A DNA stretch of 6,447 nucleotides from a virus (taxonomy: Duplodnaviria > Heunggongvirae > Uroviricota > Caudoviricetes), in the IMG/VR virus record IMGVR_UViG_2690316121_000004, positions 1-6,447 of that record, one strand, 5' to 3'. The notes under the pieces were generated by a model. That model did no database searches. It saw nothing but the letters and a program-made list of their open reading frames with translations, and was not told where the DNA came from. Shown piece by piece: positions 1-6,447 of the stretch (position 1 is its first letter; each line of letters begins with the position of its first letter). The position numbers were made by a program, and so were the translations under genes.

Positions 1-55
1 TACATAACGAAAAACGCCTCGAGTGAAGCGTAATTGGTATGCGGTAACGCCGCGC

Positions 56-424
56 TCAGGCGGCCTTGATAGTCATATCATCTGAATCAAATATTCCTGA
101 TGTATCGATATCGGTAATTCTTATTCCTTCACTACCATCCATTGGAGGCCATCCTTCCTGACCATTTCCATCATTCCAGTCGAACTCACACACAACACCA
201 TATGCATTTAAGTCGCTTGAAATTGCTATAAGCAGAGCATGTTGCGCCAGCATGATTAATACAGCATTTAATACAGAGCCGTGTTTATTGAGTCGGTATT
301 CAGAGTCTGACCAGAAATTATTAATCTGGTGAAGTTTTTCCTCTGTCATTACGTCATGGTCAATTTCAATTTCTATTGATGCTTTCCAGTCGTAATCAAT
401 GATGTATTTTTTGATGTTTGACAT
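56..424 (-). CDS. ea10: Ea10-like early protein (122 aa), in the position and of the length of lambda ea10
   Basis: Intact 369-nt ORF including stop. Lies downstream of ral on the leftward (pL) transcript, as ea10 does in lambda, and has the same length. Sequence identity to lambda Ea10 is not verified from memory; the call rests on synteny and length. Confidence 0.6.
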   Translation of the reverse strand: MSNIKKYIIDYDWKASIEIEIDHDVMTEEKLHQINNFWSDSEYRLNKHGSVLNAVLIMLAQHALLIAISSDLNAYGVVCEFDWNDGNGQEGWPPMDGSEGIRITDIDTSGIFDSDDMTIKAA

Positions 425-584
425 CTATTCATATCCTCATAGATAAAAATCGCCCTCACATTAGAGGGCAAAGAAGATTTCCAATAATCAGAACAAGTCG
501 GCTCCTGTTTAGTTACGAGCGACATTGCTCCGTGTATTCACTCGTTGGAATGAATACACAGTGCAGTGTTTATTCTGTTGTTTA

Positions 585-614
585 TGCCAAAAATAAAGGC
601 CGACTATGCGGCCT
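585..614 (-). terminator. Rho-independent terminator downstream of the 149-aa gene
   Basis: On the minus strand, a stem AGGCCG / CGGCCT (597..602 and 609..614) with a 6-nt loop is followed by TTTATTTTT. It begins 5 nt after the stop codon at 619..621. Confidence 0.6.
586..601. repeat. 16-bp direct repeat GCCAAAAATAAAGGCC, copy 1 (flanks the inserted gene)
   Basis: Exact 16-bp match to 1107..1122, read directly from the sequence. Confidence 0.9.
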
Positions 615-618
615 GAAA

Positions 619-1068
619 TTACTTAACCAATGATGCTGCATATTCGATAAGGTAAAGCTTTGGGGCCAGCCAAATTTTTAACCAAGTCATATTGGTTACT
701 ACAGCAATAATAAAACTTACCCACAGAACAAAAACTGCTGCTAATGGTAAGATTAGAAAACTAATCTCACCGTTACTTTCCCAAATCATAGTCGGTTTGT
801 ATTTAGGCTTTCCCTTCTCCCATGCCCATCCTTCATCATCGAACTTACCAATTTCAACTTTTTGGTACTGTTTCTTCATAAACCAGAAAACCAACGGGAT
901 TGTTAAAATGGCTATTAATGTTTTAATCAGACTGTCAACCATATTCCATAGCAGCAACTGATGAACAACATCAGGAATCTGTGCCTGGCTAAATGAGACA
1001 GCCGCGTCTATTCCATTACTGGCTTTTTGCAATAGTTCTACGAGAATCTTGTTTGCTTGTTCTTCCAT
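619..1068 (-). CDS. Hypothetical 149-aa membrane protein with two predicted transmembrane helices; accessory (moron) gene inserted between ea10 and ral
   Basis: Intact ORF with ATG at 1068 preceded by AAGGTGA. Two long hydrophobic segments (LIKTLIAILTIPLVFWFM and ISFLILPLAAVFVLWVSFIIAVV). Has its own terminator and is flanked by 16-bp direct repeats. Looks AT-rich by eye. No homolog recognised. Confidence 0.7.
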   Translation of the reverse strand: MEEQANKILVELLQKASNGIDAAVSFSQAQIPDVVHQLLLWNMVDSLIKTLIAILTIPLVFWFMKKQYQKVEIGKFDDEGWAWEKGKPKYKPTMIWESNGEISFLILPLAAVFVLWVSFIIAVVTNMTWLKIWLAPKLYLIEYAASLVK

Positions 1069-1106
1069 ATATCACCTTGATTGTAATAAGCATGAAATTA
1101 TTTACG

Positions 1107-1122
1107 GCCAAAAATAAAGGCC
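1107..1122. repeat. 16-bp direct repeat GCCAAAAATAAAGGCC, copy 2
   Basis: Exact match to 586..601. Lies between the ral stop and the start of the 149-aa gene. Confidence 0.9.
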
Positions 1123-1126
1123 ACCA

Positions 1127-1224
1127 TCAGGCAGCCTTGTTGTTCTGTTTACCAAATTCTCTGGCAATCATTGCCGTCGTTCGTATTGCCCACACCATTG
1201 ATTTTTATCAATGGTCGTAGTCAT
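1127..1224 (-). pseudogene. ral: ral (restriction alleviation) remnant with an internal out-of-frame deletion
   Basis: From the ATG at 1224 the minus strand reads MTTTIDKNQWCGQ, matching the lambda Ral N-terminus, then YERRQ and a stop at 1168..1170. A different frame reads WAIRTTAMIAREFGKQNNKAA with a stop at 1127..1129, matching the lambda Ral C-terminus. The roughly 30 central codons are missing. The junction sits at GTGGGCAAT (1185..1193). Confidence 0.6.
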
Positions 1225-1294
1225 ACGGATAGTCCTGGTATTGTTCCATCACATCCTGAGGATGCTCTTCGAACTCTTCAAATTCTTCTTCCAT
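1208..1294 (-). CDS. 28-aa hyperacidic peptide (MEEEFEEFEEHPQDVMEQYQDYPYDYDH), positional equivalent of lambda orf28
   Basis: ATG at 1294 preceded by GAGGTGAGAT. It overlaps the ral start by 17 nt, the same arrangement as orf28/ral in lambda. It is too short to appear in the supplied ORF track. Confidence 0.5.
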   Translation of the reverse strand: MEEEFEEFEEHPQDVMEQYQDYPYDYDH

Positions 1295-1352
1295 ATCTCA
1301 CCTCAAATAAGTGGTTTGCTGCCTAATTTCATTTTCTGGCGATCAACACAAG

Positions 1353-1736
1353 TCATCTTGCTGTCAGTTGTTTGGATTTCCGGTAGCCTGCCGCGTAAAG
1401 AGCTACATTTGGAAGACATACACCAGTTTCTGGTTGCTTATGTCCAAACTCATTCGCGTACACAATGGCCGCTCGCTCCAGATTGCGTCTGTATTCTTCC
1501 TGCTGCCAGATCACGTCCTGTGCCATGAACTTAATTGGCTTAGCGTCTTCTATGCGCTTAGGCGTTTCGTGAGTACCTTTAGCCTGAATCTGCGCTCTGC
1601 TTAGAGTAGGGCGGCGTAATACTTCTGAACTTATTGCTTCTTCGCAGGCCAGTACGCCGTTAGCTAATGCCTTTGCCTTTAAACGCTCACGACGACGAGA
1701 ACGTGAATTGCCTTTGAACTGAGTTCTGCGTGTCAT
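1353..1736 (-). CDS. N: N-family transcription antiterminator of the P22 gene 24 type (127 aa)
   Basis: Start ATG at 1736 with AGGAGG 6 nt upstream. Arginine-rich motif near the N-terminus (FKGNSRSRRRERLKAKA). C-terminus LPNVALYAAGYRKSKQLTAR closely resembles the P22 gp24 C-terminus. First gene downstream of pL and nutL. Confidence 0.8.
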   Translation of the reverse strand: MTRRTQFKGNSRSRRRERLKAKALANGVLACEEAISSEVLRRPTLSRAQIQAKGTHETPKRIEDAKPIKFMAQDVIWQQEEYRRNLERAAIVYANEFGHKQPETGVCLPNVALYAAGYRKSKQLTAR

Positions 1737-1865
1737 GTGGAACCTCCTGATGAACTTTGGCGGTGAATACAGCCGGGCGACTAACTCCGGTCGCGTAATC
1801 ATTGCAAAGCGCCTCCGCCGAGAAGGTTAGCTTCTGCATTCACCCCAAAGTTCACTTTGGTTATT

Positions 1866-1880
1866 GCGCTTTGTCAGCGC
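1866..1880 (-). promoter_or_regulatory. nutL boxB RNA hairpin (P22 type)
   Basis: The transcribed (minus) strand reads GCGCTGACAAAGCGC: a 4-bp GC stem with loop TGACAAA, identical to the P22 boxB-left as I recall it. It lies in the pL leader upstream of N. No convincing boxA was found. Confidence 0.7.
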
Positions 1881-1948
1881 CGTAGATTCATATTCGAATC
1901 GTTGTATATTCACCGCCCTGGTGAGTAGTGCGTCCTGCTGATGTGTTT

Positions 1949-1977
1949 AGTATCACCGCTAGTGGTATTTGTGTCAA
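1949..1977 (-). promoter_or_regulatory. pL promoter (-35 TTGACA at 1972..1977, -10 GATACT at 1949..1954, minus strand)
   Basis: Canonical lambda pL hexamers with 17-bp spacing, overlapping OL1 and OL2. Confidence 0.8.
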
Positions 1978-2011
1978 CACCGCTAGAGATAATTCATCAC
2001 CGCAGATGGTT
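1951..2011. promoter_or_regulatory. OL operators: OL1 1951..1967, OL2 1975..1991, OL3 1995..2011
   Basis: Three 17-bp lambda-type repressor sites: TATCACCGCTAGTGGTA, CAACACCGCTAGAGATA, CATCACCGCAGATGGTT. Confidence 0.85.
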
Positions 2012-2157
2012 ATCTGTATGTTTTTTATATGAATTTATTTTTTGAATTGGGGTATTGCTTTGGAGGGCGAGAGATCTGAATTGCGATGTTTAGTGAGTTG
2101 TATCTATTTATTTTTCAATAAATACAATTGGTTATGTGTTTTGGGGGCGATCGTGAG

Positions 2158-2185
2158 GCAAAGAAAACCCGGCGCTGAGGCCGGG
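2158..2185 (-). terminator. Rho-independent terminator ending the cI-operon transcript (lambda timm equivalent)
   Basis: On the minus strand, stem CCCGGC / GCCGGG with a 6-nt loop is followed by TTTTCTTTG. It starts 7 nt after the stop of the 332-aa ORF. Confidence 0.7.
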
Positions 2186-2192
2186 ATGAGGA

Positions 2193-3191
2193 TTATGTTA
2201 TCTCTTTGACATAAAGTATTATCGCGGACTTTATTTCACCATCTAGTTCTTTTGCGTTGATTGACAAATGAACTGGTTTTCTATCCCACTCAGCTTGCTG
2301 AAGAGCTTTTTTATGCTCGGATGCGTCGAGAAAAACATCTTGTACTATGCACGATATTCTTAGATCGGAGTCAACATTTCTCACTTGCACTTTGAAGCTC
2401 TCTGGATCAGTGGAGTCAACCTTTTCAATGCGATAATTTCCATCAAGGCGGATCTCCATTGATTTCCGCCTTGCATTTGTAGTGAGGGTTTTGGATAGAT
2501 CTGCATCCAATACAACGCCATCAATCTGAGCTGTATCAGCCTTGACAAATGATTTAACTATGTCGGTTTTTGCGTCATGAGCAAGTCTTTCCATGTTGTC
2601 TAGCTTGGGTTTTTCGCTAATAATCTGAGTCAATAATTCACTTCGTTTTGTTTCCTGCTCAGACATGAAGCGCATGGTCGCAAGGTGTTCACGCTCAGAC
2701 TCGCTTTTTACTTCTGCCATGCGAATCTCTTTGCGGTCTTCTAGATATTTTTTGAATAGGACGACGCCGCCCCATATAAGAGCGACCCCTAAAACTGTAA
2801 TAACGATCTCTTGAGGGCCCACTTTACTCACCGCAGTTTGTATAACCTCACCCATGAACCCATCCATATTAACTTCTATCAAGGACGAGCCATTCTCAAC
2901 ATTCACCTGAATTTCGATAGCTTCCTTCTCTTCTTTTGAAAGCTTTCTTGGGTCAGGAACTCCGTACTTTAACAATGCATAAGCTCGGTTTATTTGGGCC
3001 TGCATTTCAACAAAACCCTTCATCACAGAAGGAGTCAAACTGCCATGAAATTTGTCACCAGTAAGACGGAAGGTTAAGTTAGGCCACCCTTCAAATGATA
3101 TTCCATCAGGAAGATCTTGCCCAGCGATGTACATCTCAACAAAACGCAAAGCATCTTCTTCGGAATGAATAACCGCCGTGCTGATTTCCAA
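2193..3191 (-). CDS. Hypothetical 332-aa single-pass membrane protein in the rexA-rexB slot; candidate phage exclusion / abortive-infection determinant
   Basis: Intact ORF directly downstream of cI on the same strand. The first in-frame start is TTG at 3191 with GAGG 7 nt upstream; the first ATG is at 3134 (residue 20) and has no Shine-Dalgarno. One strongly hydrophobic segment (IVITVLGVALIWGGVVLF, about residues 130-147) is followed by KKYLEDRKEIR and a long charged region. Not similar to RexA or RexB as I recall them. Confidence 0.8.
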   Translation of the reverse strand: MEISTAVIHSEEDALRFVEMYIAGQDLPDGISFEGWPNLTFRLTGDKFHGSLTPSVMKGFVEMQAQINRAYALLKYGVPDPRKLSKEEKEAIEIQVNVENGSSLIEVNMDGFMGEVIQTAVSKVGPQEIVITVLGVALIWGGVVLFKKYLEDRKEIRMAEVKSESEREHLATMRFMSEQETKRSELLTQIISEKPKLDNMERLAHDAKTDIVKSFVKADTAQIDGVVLDADLSKTLTTNARRKSMEIRLDGNYRIEKVDSTDPESFKVQVRNVDSDLRISCIVQDVFLDASEHKKALQQAEWDRKPVHLSINAKELDGEIKSAIILYVKEIT

Positions 3192-3261
3192 GACTAAACC
3201 TCTATAATTATTAATAATTTCAAATGATTGCTGTTTTTATTAGGAGACATTTAGCCCTTCA

Positions 3262-3978
<717 letters not shown>

Positions 3979-3981
3979 TTA

Positions 3982-4010
3982 AATCTATCACCGCAAGGGA
4001 TAAACATCTA
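3982..4010 (-). promoter_or_regulatory. pRM promoter (-10 TAGATT at 3982..3987, -35 TAGATG at 4005..4010, minus strand)
   Basis: Lambda pRM architecture overlapping OR3 and OR2. The -35 reads TAGATG where lambda has TAGATA. Confidence 0.75.
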
Positions 4011-4049
4011 ACACCGTGCGTGTTGACTATTTTACCTCTAGCGGTGATA
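3986..4049. promoter_or_regulatory. OR operators: OR3 3986..4002, OR2 4009..4025, OR1 4033..4049
   Basis: TATCACCGCAAGGGATA, TAACACCGTGCGTGTTG, TACCTCTAGCGGTGATA. Lambda-type tripartite operator between divergent cI and cro. Confidence 0.9.
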
Positions 4050-4051
4050 AT
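4022..4051 (+). promoter_or_regulatory. pR promoter (-35 TTGACT at 4022..4027, -10 GATAAT at 4046..4051)
   Basis: Canonical lambda pR hexamers with 18-bp spacing. The cro Shine-Dalgarno (TAAGGAGG) and ATG follow. Confidence 0.85.
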
Positions 4052-4075
4052 GATTACCTGTACTAAGGAGGTTGT

Positions 4076-4276
4076 ATGGAACAACGCATAACCCTGAAAG
4101 ATTATGCAATACGCTTTGGGCAAACCAAGACGGCTAAAGATCTCGGTGTATATCAAAGCGCGATTAACAAGGCCATTCATGCAGGCCGAAAGATTTTTTT
4201 AACTATAAACGCTGATGGAAGCGTTTATGCGGAAGAAATAAAGCCCTTCCCAAGTAACAAAAAAACAACTGCATAA
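4076..4276 (+). CDS. cro: Cro repressor, lambda type (66 aa)
   Basis: Matches lambda Cro over all 66 residues except about 2 conservative changes (M12I, V55I from memory). Strong Shine-Dalgarno upstream. Confidence 0.95.
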
Positions 4277-4314
4277 GTAACACCGCTATTTTCACAATGG
4301 ACATTCGTCCTACG

Positions 4315-4329
4315 TCGCTGACAAAGCGA
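4315..4329 (+). promoter_or_regulatory. nutR boxB hairpin (TCGCTGACAAAGCGA), with a possible boxA-like CGCTATTTT at 4284..4292
   Basis: 4-bp stem with loop TGACAAA, the same loop as nutL boxB, located just downstream of cro. The boxA call is weak: one or two mismatches to CGCTCTTTA and a longer spacer than in lambda. Confidence 0.6.
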
Positions 4330-4403
4330 GTCCCAATATATCTGACCAACTAAGGCCATATGCGTTTCCACGCATACCTTTCAACTAACTATTCACTATT
4401 GGA

Positions 4404-4437
4404 AATCTTAAGAAATGGAACAAACAAATTACAGCAA
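4404..4437 (-). promoter_or_regulatory. pRE-like CII-dependent promoter (TTGC-N6-TTGT site at 4424..4437, -10 AAGATT at 4404..4409, minus strand)
   Basis: On the minus strand: TTGCTGTAATTTGT, then 14 nt, then AAGATT. This mirrors lambda pRE (TTGC-N6-TTGC, 13 nt, AAGTAT) and overlaps the cII start codon as in lambda. Confidence 0.5.
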
Positions 4438-4711
4438 ACTATCACAGCGCGACGTTGATCGCGCAGAAACAGATTTACTTATCAACCTGTCAACGCTTAC
4501 TCAGCGCGGTCTGGCAAAGATGATTGGCTGTCATGAATCGAAGATAAGCAGAACAGACTGGAGGTTTATAGCTTCGGTCTTGTGTGCTTTTGGCATGGCA
4601 TCAGACATCAGTCCGATTAGCAGAGCTTTTAAGTATGCGCTTGATGAAATCACCAATAAAAAACGCCCGGCGGCAACCGAGCGTTCTGAACAAATCCAGA
4701 TGGAATTCTGA
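4415..4711 (+). CDS. cII: CII transcriptional activator, chimeric (98 aa)
   Basis: The C-terminal 19 residues (TNKKRPAATERSEQIQMEF) are identical to lambda CII. The N-terminal 79 residues are divergent but alignable, including the helix-turn-helix region. Confidence 0.85.
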   Translation: MEQTNYSKLSQRDVDRAETDLLINLSTLTQRGLAKMIGCHESKISRTDWRFIASVLCAFGMASDISPISRAFKYALDEITNKKRPAATERSEQIQMEF

Positions 4712-4734
4712 GGTCATTACTGGATCTATCAACA
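4655..4734 (-). ncRNA. oop: oop antisense RNA with its intrinsic terminator
   Basis: The minus strand reads GTTGATAGATCCAGTAATGACCTCAGAATTCCATCTGGATTTGTTCAGAACGCTCGGTTGCCGCCGGGCGTTTTTTATT, matching lambda oop as recalled. A promoter-like pair lies upstream on the minus strand (-10 CATAAT near 4741..4746, -35 TTGAGT near 4764..4769). Confidence 0.8.
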
Positions 4735-4743
4735 GGAGTCATT

Positions 4744-5642
4744 ATGACAAATACAGCAAAAATACTCAACTTCGGCAGAGGTAACTTTGCCGGACAGGAG
4801 CGTAATGTGGCAGATCTCGATGATGGTTACGCCAGACTATCAAATATGCTGCTTGAGGCTTATTCAGGCGCAGATCTGACCAAGCGACAGTTTAAAGTGC
4901 TGCTTGCCATTCTGCGTAAAACCTATGGGTGGAATAAACCAATGGACAGAATCACCGATTCTCAACTTAGTGAGATTACAAAGTTACCTGTCAAACGGTG
5001 CAATGAAGCCAAGTTAGAACTCGTCAGAATGAATATTATCAAGCAGCAAGGCGGCATGTTTGGACCAAATAAAAACATCTCAGAATGGTGTATCCCTCAA
5101 AACGAGGGAAAATCCCCTAAAACGAGGGATAAAACATCCCTCAAATTGGGGGATTGCTATCCCTCAAAACAGGGGGACACAAAAGACACTATTACAAAAG
5201 AAAAAAGAAAAGATTATTCGTCCGAGAATTCTGGCGAATCCTCTGACCAGCCAGAAAACGATCTTTCTGTGGTTAAACCGGATGCTGCAATTCAGAGCGG
5301 CAGCAAGTGGGGGACAGCAGAAGACCTGACCGCCGCAGAGTGGATGTTTGACATGGTGAAGACCATCCGCCATCAGCCAGAAAACCGAATTTTGCTGGGT
5401 GGGCTAACGATATCCGCCTGATGCGTGAACGTGACGGACGTAACCACCGAGACATGTGTGTACTGTTCCGCTGGGCATGCCAGGACAACTTCTGGTCCGG
5501 TAACGTGCTGAGTCCGGCCAAACTCCGCGACAAGTGGACCCAGCTCGAAATCAACCGAAACAAGCAACAGGCTGGCGTGACAGCCGGCAAACCAAAACTC
5601 GACCTGACGAACACTGACTGGATTTACGGGGTGGAGCTATGA
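4744..5642 (+). pseudogene. O: O replication initiator, frameshifted (N-terminal 225 codons in one frame, C-terminal 73 codons in another)
   Basis: The ORF 4744..5421 matches the lambda O N-terminal domain; the ORF ending at 5642 matches the lambda O C-terminus and overlaps the P start (ATGA) as in lambda. The span is 899 nt, not a multiple of 3. The frames switch at about 5364..5372 (ATCCGCCATCAGCC here; lambda has ATCGCACCATCAGCC as recalled). Confidence 0.85.
5092..5216. other. ori-lambda: four iterons (about 5092..5111, 5112..5131, 5134..5156, 5159..5178) plus an AT-rich unwinding region (5179..5216)
   Basis: Four repeats of ATCCCTCAAAACGAGGGA-like sequence, followed by CACAAAAGACACTATTACAAAAGAAAAAAGAAAAGATTATTCG, inside the O coding region. 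Confidence 0.9.
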
Positions 5643-6340
5643 AAAACATCGCCGCACAGATGGTTAACTTTGACTGTGAGCAGATGCGCCGGATCGCCAA
5701 CAACATGCCGGAACAGTACGACGAAAAGCCGCAGGTACAGCAGGTAGCGCAGATCATCAACGGTGTGTTCAGCCAGTTACTGGCAACTTTCCCGGCGAGT
5801 CTGGCTAACCGTGACCAGAACGAACTGAACGAAATCCGCCGCCAGTGGGTTCTGGCTTTCCGGGAAAACGGGATCACCACAATGGAACAGGTTAACGCAG
5901 GAATGCGCGTAGCCCGTCGGCAGAATCGACCATTTCTGCCATCACCCGGGCAGTTTGTTGCATGGTGCCGGGAAGAAGCATCCGTTATCGCCGGACTGCC
6001 AAACGTCAGCGAGCTGGTTGATATGGTTTACGAGTATTGCCGGAAGCGTGGTCTGTATCCAGATGCAGAGTCTTATCCGTGGAAATCAAACGCGCACTAC
6101 TGGCTGGTTACCAACCTGTATCAGAACATGCGGGCCAATGCGCTTACTGATGCGGAATTACGCCGTAAGGCCGCAGATGAGCTTGTCCATATGACTGCGA
6201 GAATTAACCGTGGTGAGGCGATCCCTGAACCAGTAAAACAACTTCCTGTCATGGGCGGTAGACCTCTAAATCGTGCACAGGCTCTGGCGAAGATCGCAGA
6301 AATCAAAGCTAAGTTCGGACTGAAAGGAGCAAGTGTATGA
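5639..6340 (+). CDS. P: P replication protein (DnaB helicase loader), lambda type (233 aa)
   Basis: Full-length, near-identical to lambda P. The start overlaps the O stop. Confidence 0.95.
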   Translation: MKNIAAQMVNFDCEQMRRIANNMPEQYDEKPQVQQVAQIINGVFSQLLATFPASLANRDQNELNEIRRQWVLAFRENGITTMEQVNAGMRVARRQNRPFLPSPGQFVAWCREEASVIAGLPNVSELVDMVYEYCRKRGLYPDAESYPWKSNAHYWLVTNLYQNMRANALTDAELRRKAADELVHMTARINRGEAIPEPVKQLPVMGGRPLNRAQALAKIAEIKAKFGLKGASV

Positions 6341-6447
6341 CGGGCAAAGAGGCAATTATTCATTACCTGGGGACGCATAATAGCTTCTGTGCGCCGGACG
6401 TTGCCGCGTTAACAGGCGCAACAGTAACCAGCATAAATCAGGCCGCG
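6338..6447 (+). CDS. ren: ren (Rex-exclusion resistance), 5' end only; runs off the window
   Basis: Translation MTGKEAIIHYLGTHNSFCAPDVAALTGATVTSINQAA matches the lambda Ren N-terminus. The ATG overlaps the P stop. Confidence 0.85.

Follow-up and report, generated by a model that had tools for sequence, protein, structure and literature searches.

Behind the cI repressor gene of the lambda-immunity E. coli prophage in IMG/VR record IMGVR_UViG_2690316121_000004 (Caudoviricetes), of which positions 1 to 6,447 were analyzed here (this whole stretch of 6,447 nucleotides is called the window throughout), the lambda genes rexB and rexA have been exchanged for one gene that codes for a protein of 332 amino acids. 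This open reading frame (ORF) is a true accessory ('moron') gene under strong constraint, and its family is a self-contained, autonomous single-gene cassette that has been moved between accessory hotspots of temperate phages. An anti-phage function of some kind is, in our judgment, somewhat probable, and among the particular roles considered we rank first, tentatively and with less than even confidence, that of a lysogen-expressed, single-protein exclusion factor at the inner membrane, which would act at phage entry in preference to cell suicide.

A one-gene cassette in the place of rexAB

Comparison of the window with lambda by blastn aligned positions 1910-2185 with lambda 35550-35824 (92%) and positions 3261-4290 with lambda 37226-38255 (95%). 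Set against the lambda annotation (rexB 35825-36259, rexA 36275-37114, cI 37227-37940), this means that lambda 35825-37225, a segment of 1401 bp comprising rexB, rexA and the rexA-cI spacer, has been swapped for 1075 bp of unrelated DNA at window positions 2186-3260. Both junctions lie at most one base from a stop codon, that of rexB on the left and that of cI on the right (Table 1), and the precise replacement of rexA-rexB next to cI that an earlier note on this DNA had claimed is fully confirmed. The replaced interval holds a single long ORF between cI and the terminator t_imm, as that note had also stated, and the boundaries of the cassette enclose no other gene; the same ORF, with the same start, is called by the Prokaryotic Genome Annotation Pipeline (PGAP) as WP_000406300.1. 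The description of the ORF as AT-rich did not hold, since its GC fraction is 0.420, that of the window being 0.446 and that of cI 0.452. Replacement in the rexAB slot is not new as such, because wild lambda-immunity phages in which other genes take the place of rexAB have been known since Degnan et al. 2007, as cited in later work. What is new, in the sense that it was not found in the literature searched, is the protein family, its combination of folds and the breadth of its distribution.

In lambda, the cI transcripts that start at pRM and pRE continue through rexAB and end at t_imm. The ORF occupies the same location on the cI strand, between cI and t_imm, the terminator has been retained with its hairpin beginning 7 nucleotides past the ORF stop codon, and no convincing terminator was found in the 70-bp spacer that separates cI from the ORF. 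As rexAB rides the cI transcripts to t_imm and the operon geometry is the same here, the ORF should be co-transcribed with cI in the lysogen and its transcript should end at t_imm; this expectation, which the earlier note shared, is drawn from the geometry of the locus, with which it agrees in every respect considered (same strand, terminator-free spacer, t_imm-like hairpin after the ORF).

Substitution patterns indicate that the coding sequence is under strong selection. Comparison with a homologue of 86% identity gave a nonsynonymous substitution rate (dN) of 0.09 with the synonymous rate (dS) saturated, and comparison with a homologue of 64% identity gave a dN/dS of 0.09. The low dN in the face of a saturated dS, together with more than 1,500 homologous clusters, argues that this is not a chance ORF. 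The TTG start was preferred over the next ATG because residues 4-18 are conserved in homologues.

A large family found in many accessory contexts

A profile search of 1.84 billion representative sequences returned at least 1,549 clusters (at 50% identity) with E<=1e-3, and 599 with E<=1e-30; nearly all family members are 320-360 amino acids long and are matched from end to end. Every one of the 122 relatives returned by a word-indexed search is named "hypothetical". The family is found chiefly in Proteobacteria, with some members in Thermodesulfobacteriota and Spirochaetes, and the allele of the window (at least 90% identity) occurs in E. coli, Salmonella (including Typhi), Klebsiella and Raoultella, being present in 9 of 5,426 complete E. 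coli genomes. The sole library match of the protein was to PHROG 6191, of unknown function (E 1.1e-137, residues 4-331 on positions 6-334 of a profile of 338). The suggestion that this is an undescribed single gene stands only in part: no description was found, but the gene is far from rare, given the very large family, a paralogue of 63% identity that is commoner in E. coli than this allele and a distant homologue in the rex slot of the published wild phage mEp332.

The genomic contexts of the family were surveyed in 96 loci drawn from genomes and IMG/VR. At 15 of the 96 the gene lies directly behind a repressor, of which there are at least five types: the identical protein WP_000406300.1 is encoded behind lambda cI and behind an unrelated LexA-family repressor of 235 amino acids, in Moraxella phage Mcat17 the gene for a 33% homologue comes after that of an S24 repressor, and on a circular element of Syntrophotalea the order is repressor, family gene, serine recombinase. 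A second and larger set (49 loci) has the gene alone between the antiterminator gene Q and the holin gene, on the strand opposite to late transcription, with homologues of 40-65% identity; the 63%-identical paralogue found there, WP_000357056.1 (339 amino acids), is present in 86 of the 5,426 E. coli genomes, nearly tenfold the count of the window allele. In a Proteus-type branch the gene has tail genes on one side and, on the other, an Arc/Bro-N module accompanied by a DUF4145 gene; the immI region, which harbors sieA in P22, is a similar setting. Furthermore, in a marine integrase island of Oceanospirillaceae the gene immediately downstream codes for a Type ISP/IIG restriction enzyme and GmrSD_C is close by, a Fic gene adjoins the family member at a Vreelandella locus, and Pasteurella phage Pmp14 has a helix-turn-helix (HTH) gene and a type VI retron reverse transcriptase gene (PADLOC RT_VI, E 2e-88) followed, after 84 bp, by a 27% homologue. 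No partner gene was found to recur across the cI, Q-holin, tail-region and island contexts. The single-gene nature proposed in the earlier note is thus upheld by an identical protein behind different repressors and by homologues that stand alone in other hotspots; in the slot itself, the survey of other phages added the distant homologue of mEp332.

Some of these loci have features of their own. The Syntrophotalea acetylenica element is a 13.7-kb 'plasmid' (NZ_CP015456.1) with a CII-like gene, an HTH repressor gene, a tail protein gene and a serine recombinase gene, and it looks like a circularised temperate-phage fragment or a phage-plasmid, not an ordinary plasmid. In E. coli APEC O78 (NC_020163.1) the gene for WP_000357056.1 (positions 5001-6020 of the locus) is convergent with Q, and in this and four further loci the two genes are 12-14 bp apart. 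In the Oceanospirillaceae island, which is represented by three loci, a gene for 331 amino acids with no Pfam match (6591-7586) lies upstream of the family member, and downstream of the 1646-amino-acid Type ISP enzyme there is a gene for an AHH nuclease-toxin with a probable immunity gene (14092-15386). The 331-amino-acid neighbor was considered as a partner and set aside, as it is unrelated to the family and does not recur. In Pmp14 the HTH gene, the retron reverse transcriptase gene and the family member stand in a row (3668-6032) near the genome end; this retron position looks like a variable hotspot, because sister phages carry other genes there, namely an exonuclease, KilA-N (PADLOC candidate PDC-S22) or Gp157. 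A role as the effector of the type VI retron was likewise rejected: RT_VI is adjacent in one of the six loci that have a Pmp14-type homologue (61-100% identical to the Pmp14 protein). Rfam found no retron RNA family.

Domain anatomy and predicted topology

A monomer model of the 332-amino-acid protein was built with AlphaFold2 on an alignment of 49 homologues, with a mean predicted local distance difference test score (pLDDT) of 86.8 and a predicted template modeling score (pTM) of 0.82. The soluble N-terminal part of about 125 residues, the hydrophobic helix, the positively charged juxtamembrane stretch and the long charged C-terminal part that had been noticed from the sequence were all recovered in our analysis of it (Table 1). 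For the N-terminal alpha/beta domain no structural relative was found, and the C-terminal domain forms in the model a five-stranded barrel like those of solved OB domains. No signal peptide, lipobox, enzymatic domain or nuclease domain was detected in the protein.

The helix I129-F146 consists of 18 unbroken apolar residues (mean Kyte-Doolittle hydropathy 2.33; insertion energy, summed by hand, about -2 kcal/mol) and is followed by KKYLEDRKEIR; one Lys or Arg flanks it on the N side and five on the C side. Its position is unchanged in all 49 aligned members, in which the mean number of Lys and Arg is 1.6 in the N-side flank and 4.2 in the C-side flank. The helix is as conserved as the globular domains (majority fraction 0.55), which suggests that it makes specific helix-helix contacts rather than serving as a passive anchor. 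By the positive-inside rule, the N-terminal domain would be periplasmic and the linker and OB domain cytoplasmic. We hold this predicted topology loosely, because the protein has no signal peptide, the monomer model is compact and the helix is marginal in about one third of the family.

Table 1. Position of the cassette, its product and its neighbors in the window
Feature	Position in window	Strand	Position in lambda	Basis or remark
Left junction	2185/2186		35824/35825	blastn
Right junction	3260/3261		37225/37226	blastn
cI repressor, lambda-type, 237 amino acids	3262..3975	-		Upstream gene of the presumed operon
cI-ORF spacer, 70 bp, non-lambda	3192..3261	-		No terminator-like site; read-through from cI expected
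Shine-Dalgarno sequence AGAGG	3199..3203	-		7 nucleotides 5' of TTG; read from the sequence
ORF, 332 amino acids, TTG start 3191-3189, stop 2195-2193	2193..3191	-		PHROG 6191 member; identical to WP_000406300.1
N-terminal region, residues 1-125, alpha/beta domain	2817..3191	-		AlphaFold2 model
Hydrophobic helix I129-F146, motif ITVLGxAxIWGG, predicted single transmembrane span	2754..2807	-		Lys/Arg-rich stretch follows
Charged helical linker, residues 147-217	2541..2753	-		Least conserved part; model and conservation
C-terminal OB-fold domain, residues 218-332	2196..2540	-		Conserved R241, G251, Y253, E301-W302, R304, N312-A313
t_imm-like intrinsic terminator, CCCGGC..GCCGGG then T-run	2158..2185	-		Common to lambda; hairpin 2185..2168

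Relation to known systems

The likeness to RexAB lies in the slot and operon (the interval from cI to t_imm), in the presumed expression in the lysogen and in a membrane component, which for the cassette is a predicted one. RexAB differs in consisting of two proteins, soluble RexA of 279 amino acids and RexB of 144 amino acids, the latter polytopic, whereas the cassette described here has one ORF with one hydrophobic segment. Homology was found neither by hhalign of the family profile, which gave probabilities of 0.08% for RexA and 0.18% for RexB, nor in PADLOC at E<=1. The rex-slot ORF of mEp332 (XSB41013.1) is, on the other hand, a full-length homologue in the same slot of a lambda-immunity phage, with 22% identity and the same architecture (BLASTP E 6e-13; hhalign probability 99.4%, E 8.5e-22), although its branch is very divergent and its close relatives make up only 11 clusters. 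This ORF is labelled 'T2SS GspM containing protein' in XSB41013.1 and 'conserved hypothetical protein' in EF120456; the GspM label was not reproduced by Pfam at E<=0.1, and neither the family nor the fold of GspM was recognized in the protein.

Among the other occupants of the slot, BstA, a soluble protein, and HigBAC, a toxin-antitoxin-chaperone module, are unrelated to the cassette product and are not membrane anchored. Both of them, BstA in prophage BTP1 and HigBAC in a prophage of E. coli NT1F31, share the same post-repressor position and promoter and have been shown in published work to be defense systems.

The superinfection exclusion proteins SieA of P22, SieB of lambda and P22, gp15 of HK97 and Imm of T4 resemble the product, as predicted, in being phage-encoded inner-membrane moron proteins. 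They are not known to have an OB fold, and with lambda SieB, the one compared, hhalign found no homology (probability 0.22%). The nearest architectural analogue is probably lactococcal AbiP, a single membrane-anchored abortive-infection protein with an OB-like nucleic-acid-binding domain, whose anchor is N-terminal, as opposed to the central helix and acidic OB domain seen here. A further parallel is offered by SNIPE, a published single-pass inner-membrane defense protein with an N-out/C-in orientation and a cytoplasmic binding domain, which acts at genome entry; it differs in having a short outside N-terminus, a DUF4041 domain and a GIY-YIG nuclease that cuts injected phage DNA, no nuclease having been detected in our protein.

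Possible function

In the scheme that we favor, the cassette swapped into the rexAB slot would be transcribed with cI up to t_imm, and its product would be a bitopic inner-membrane protein in which a Gly/Ala-faced helix joins an acidic N-domain to the linker and OB domain. Self-association of the conserved helix, or its contact with a partner in the membrane, would go together with ligand binding by the OB domain on the cytoplasmic side, and the protein would exclude incoming phage at or just after genome entry, as superinfection exclusion proteins do. According to published work, the cI-to-N interval is a mosaic defense hotspot that holds RexAB, BstA and HigBAC, and its promoter is among the most active in prophages; the earlier note's view of the cI-adjacent slot as a defense hotspot is borne out by this cargo. 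An exclusion factor was ranked first because a mobile and conserved gene sits in slots for cargo that is expressed by the lysogen or transcribed on its own and because the published cargo of the cI-to-N interval is anti-phage. An entry stage was favored over suicide because early lytic operons, too, contain the gene, and a suicide device placed there would be harmful to the phage that carries it. Additionally, action at the site of entry suits a membrane-spanning layout, as has been shown for the unrelated SNIPE. Interference at entry, to which we lean slightly over an abortive pore-forming response, is itself a doubtful proposition. The same applies to a bolder form of the idea, in which this would be an autonomous single-chain membrane-spanning immunity family, shuttled among at least four hotspots, whose exported sensing domain is coupled by the helix to a cytoplasmic OB module in a novel mechanism; this we consider rather unlikely. 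The union of sensing and membrane-effector roles in one chain, which the earlier note suggested, is likewise conjectural.

A number of observations weigh against an entry-stage exclusion factor. The first of them concern homology, as no link to defense emerged from the searches made: with the 332-amino-acid protein, NCBIfam and PDB profile searches gave nothing meaningful, Pfam gave only a sub-threshold match to aRib (E 0.0027, below the cutoff), and PADLOC-DB v2.0.0 gave no match at E<=1, nor any for the mEp332, Mcat17 or Pmp14 homologues. WP_000406300 is not among the entries of the DefensePredictor supplements, and a literature search by accession, PHROG number, mEp332 and hotspot found no characterization of the family; the earlier note, too, had recognized no family. 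Secondly, the Caballeronia copies are chromosomal orphans among housekeeping genes. Like the distant members that are sense-oriented among the early genes of Pasteurellaceae and Mu-like phages, they do not fit a purely lysogen-expressed defense, and both kinds of locus weaken the idea of abortive infection confined to the lysogen. Thirdly, known superinfection exclusion proteins are usually much smaller, and both globular domains of this one show even conservation, neither containing a hypervariable stretch of the sensor type. The OB domain is acidic (median isoelectric point 5.4), because of which generic nucleic-acid binding, a function considered for it, is disfavored. Lastly, the membrane topology is itself in question: in about one third of the family the helix is marginal (Kyte-Doolittle 1.15-1.6; median apparent insertion energy +2.6 kcal/mol), the pTM of the monomer model hints that the domains pack together and do not lie on opposite faces of the membrane, and an N-out orientation would need export of a 125-residue domain with no signal peptide, which is unusual.

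The most serious competitor, unlikely as we take it to be, is an abortive-infection sensor-effector, that is, a one-chain analogue of RexAB in which the cytoplasmic domain would sense a cue and the helices would oligomerise into a depolarising pore, so that the cell is killed or arrested. The slot and operon are those of RexAB, the slot-mates BstA and HigBAC are published to work by abortive infection, and restriction and retron systems, common company for abortive-infection genes, lie near some family members. The structure offers two further points in its favor, as the helix keeps small residues (G135, A137, G141, G142) fit for helix-helix packing and the best structural matches include OB folds like those of the pentamer-forming B subunits of AB5 toxins. 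However, the protein has no homology to RexA or RexB and no toxic or enzymatic domain was detected in it, one helix per chain demands a hypothetical higher-order assembly, and the sense-strand copies in early lytic operons would require self-immunity.

We regard as improbable a role in lysogenic conversion or prophage physiology, in which the product would not be anti-phage and would alter the host envelope or stress response, or tune lysis-lysogeny or induction as RexA does. Such a role would be in keeping with the even and strong conservation between distant taxa, which points to a cellular partner that is itself conserved more than to a fast-evolving phage target, with the orphan copies in Caballeronia and with the lack of defense homology in PADLOC; the hotspots that the gene occupies (lysogeny-module and independently transcribed) also hold non-defense cargo. 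A precedent exists in RexA, which is reported to bias the lambda switch (PMC11077077). Opposed to this are the recurrence of the gene beside restriction-modification, GmrSD, retron, Fic and DUF4145 genes, the failure to find in the protein a signal peptide, a lipobox or an enzymatic domain such as known conversion factors typically have, and the published record of the slot downstream of cI, which has so far given defense systems each time it was tested.

It is quite improbable, in our estimate, that the product is not a membrane protein at all, with the helix buried at the center of a soluble cytoplasmic protein, perhaps an oligomeric one, or inserting only on activation, an idea that overlaps with the other readings. 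The compact model, the lack of a signal peptide and the marginal hydrophobicity and positive median insertion energy noted above would agree with it, as would the pLDDT of 81 for the N-domain modeled alone as compared with about 88 in context. These are countered by the length, hydropathy and insertion energy of the helix in the window protein, by the KK...R.K..R pattern that follows it and by the charge asymmetry across all 49 members examined. Finally, a component of a multi-gene system, such as a retron effector or a partner of a neighboring gene, for which the retron beside the Pmp14 homologue and the 331-amino-acid gene in the Oceanospirillaceae island could be adduced, is very improbable, since no gene co-occurs across contexts and the cassette of the window is the ORF alone.

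The exclusion factor that we rank first would be of interest for several reasons. The mechanism of RexAB is still obscure after more than 60 years, and the slot behind the prophage repressor has repeatedly given phage-exclusion systems (RexAB, BstA, HigBAC). The candidate has practical assets in being a single compact gene with a confident model, a conserved transmembrane motif and mutable conserved residues, and there are hundreds of natural alleles, two of them common in E. coli, Salmonella and Klebsiella. Should it prove anti-phage, defense catalogues, which now miss it, would gain a widespread new family; it would also provide a simple system for how a membrane-spanning protein recognizes infection and bear on the prediction of host range for phage therapy in Enterobacteriaceae. 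If it is not, it would be a widespread lysogeny-expressed membrane factor, still worth defining.

Other features of the window

A second candidate exclusion or moron gene is present at 619..1068 (minus strand), within a non-lambda segment (608-1097) between ea10 (DUF2528, 56..424) and N; in lambda this place is taken by ral, orf28 and sieB. The gene codes for a protein of 149 amino acids with two hydrophobic segments that belongs to PHROG 3054 (unknown function) and for which no Pfam, NCBIfam or PADLOC match was found.

The cI, cro, OR, O and P regions of the window are 95-98% identical to lambda. A deletion of one nucleotide at 5368, relative to lambda 39310, frameshifts the replication gene O, which is represented by the ORFs 4744..5421 and 5421..5642 (plus strand): the first codes for 225 amino acids with an altered tail and the second for the remainder, lambda O having 299 amino acids. 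Unless the deletion is a sequencing error, the prophage is replication-defective. Two further segments are not lambda-like, 4291-4649, which includes part of the cII region, and 1320-1909, which includes nutL and the N ORF (1353..1802, minus strand); the 149-amino-acid N ORF as listed probably starts at an internal Met just ahead of the Arg-rich motif.

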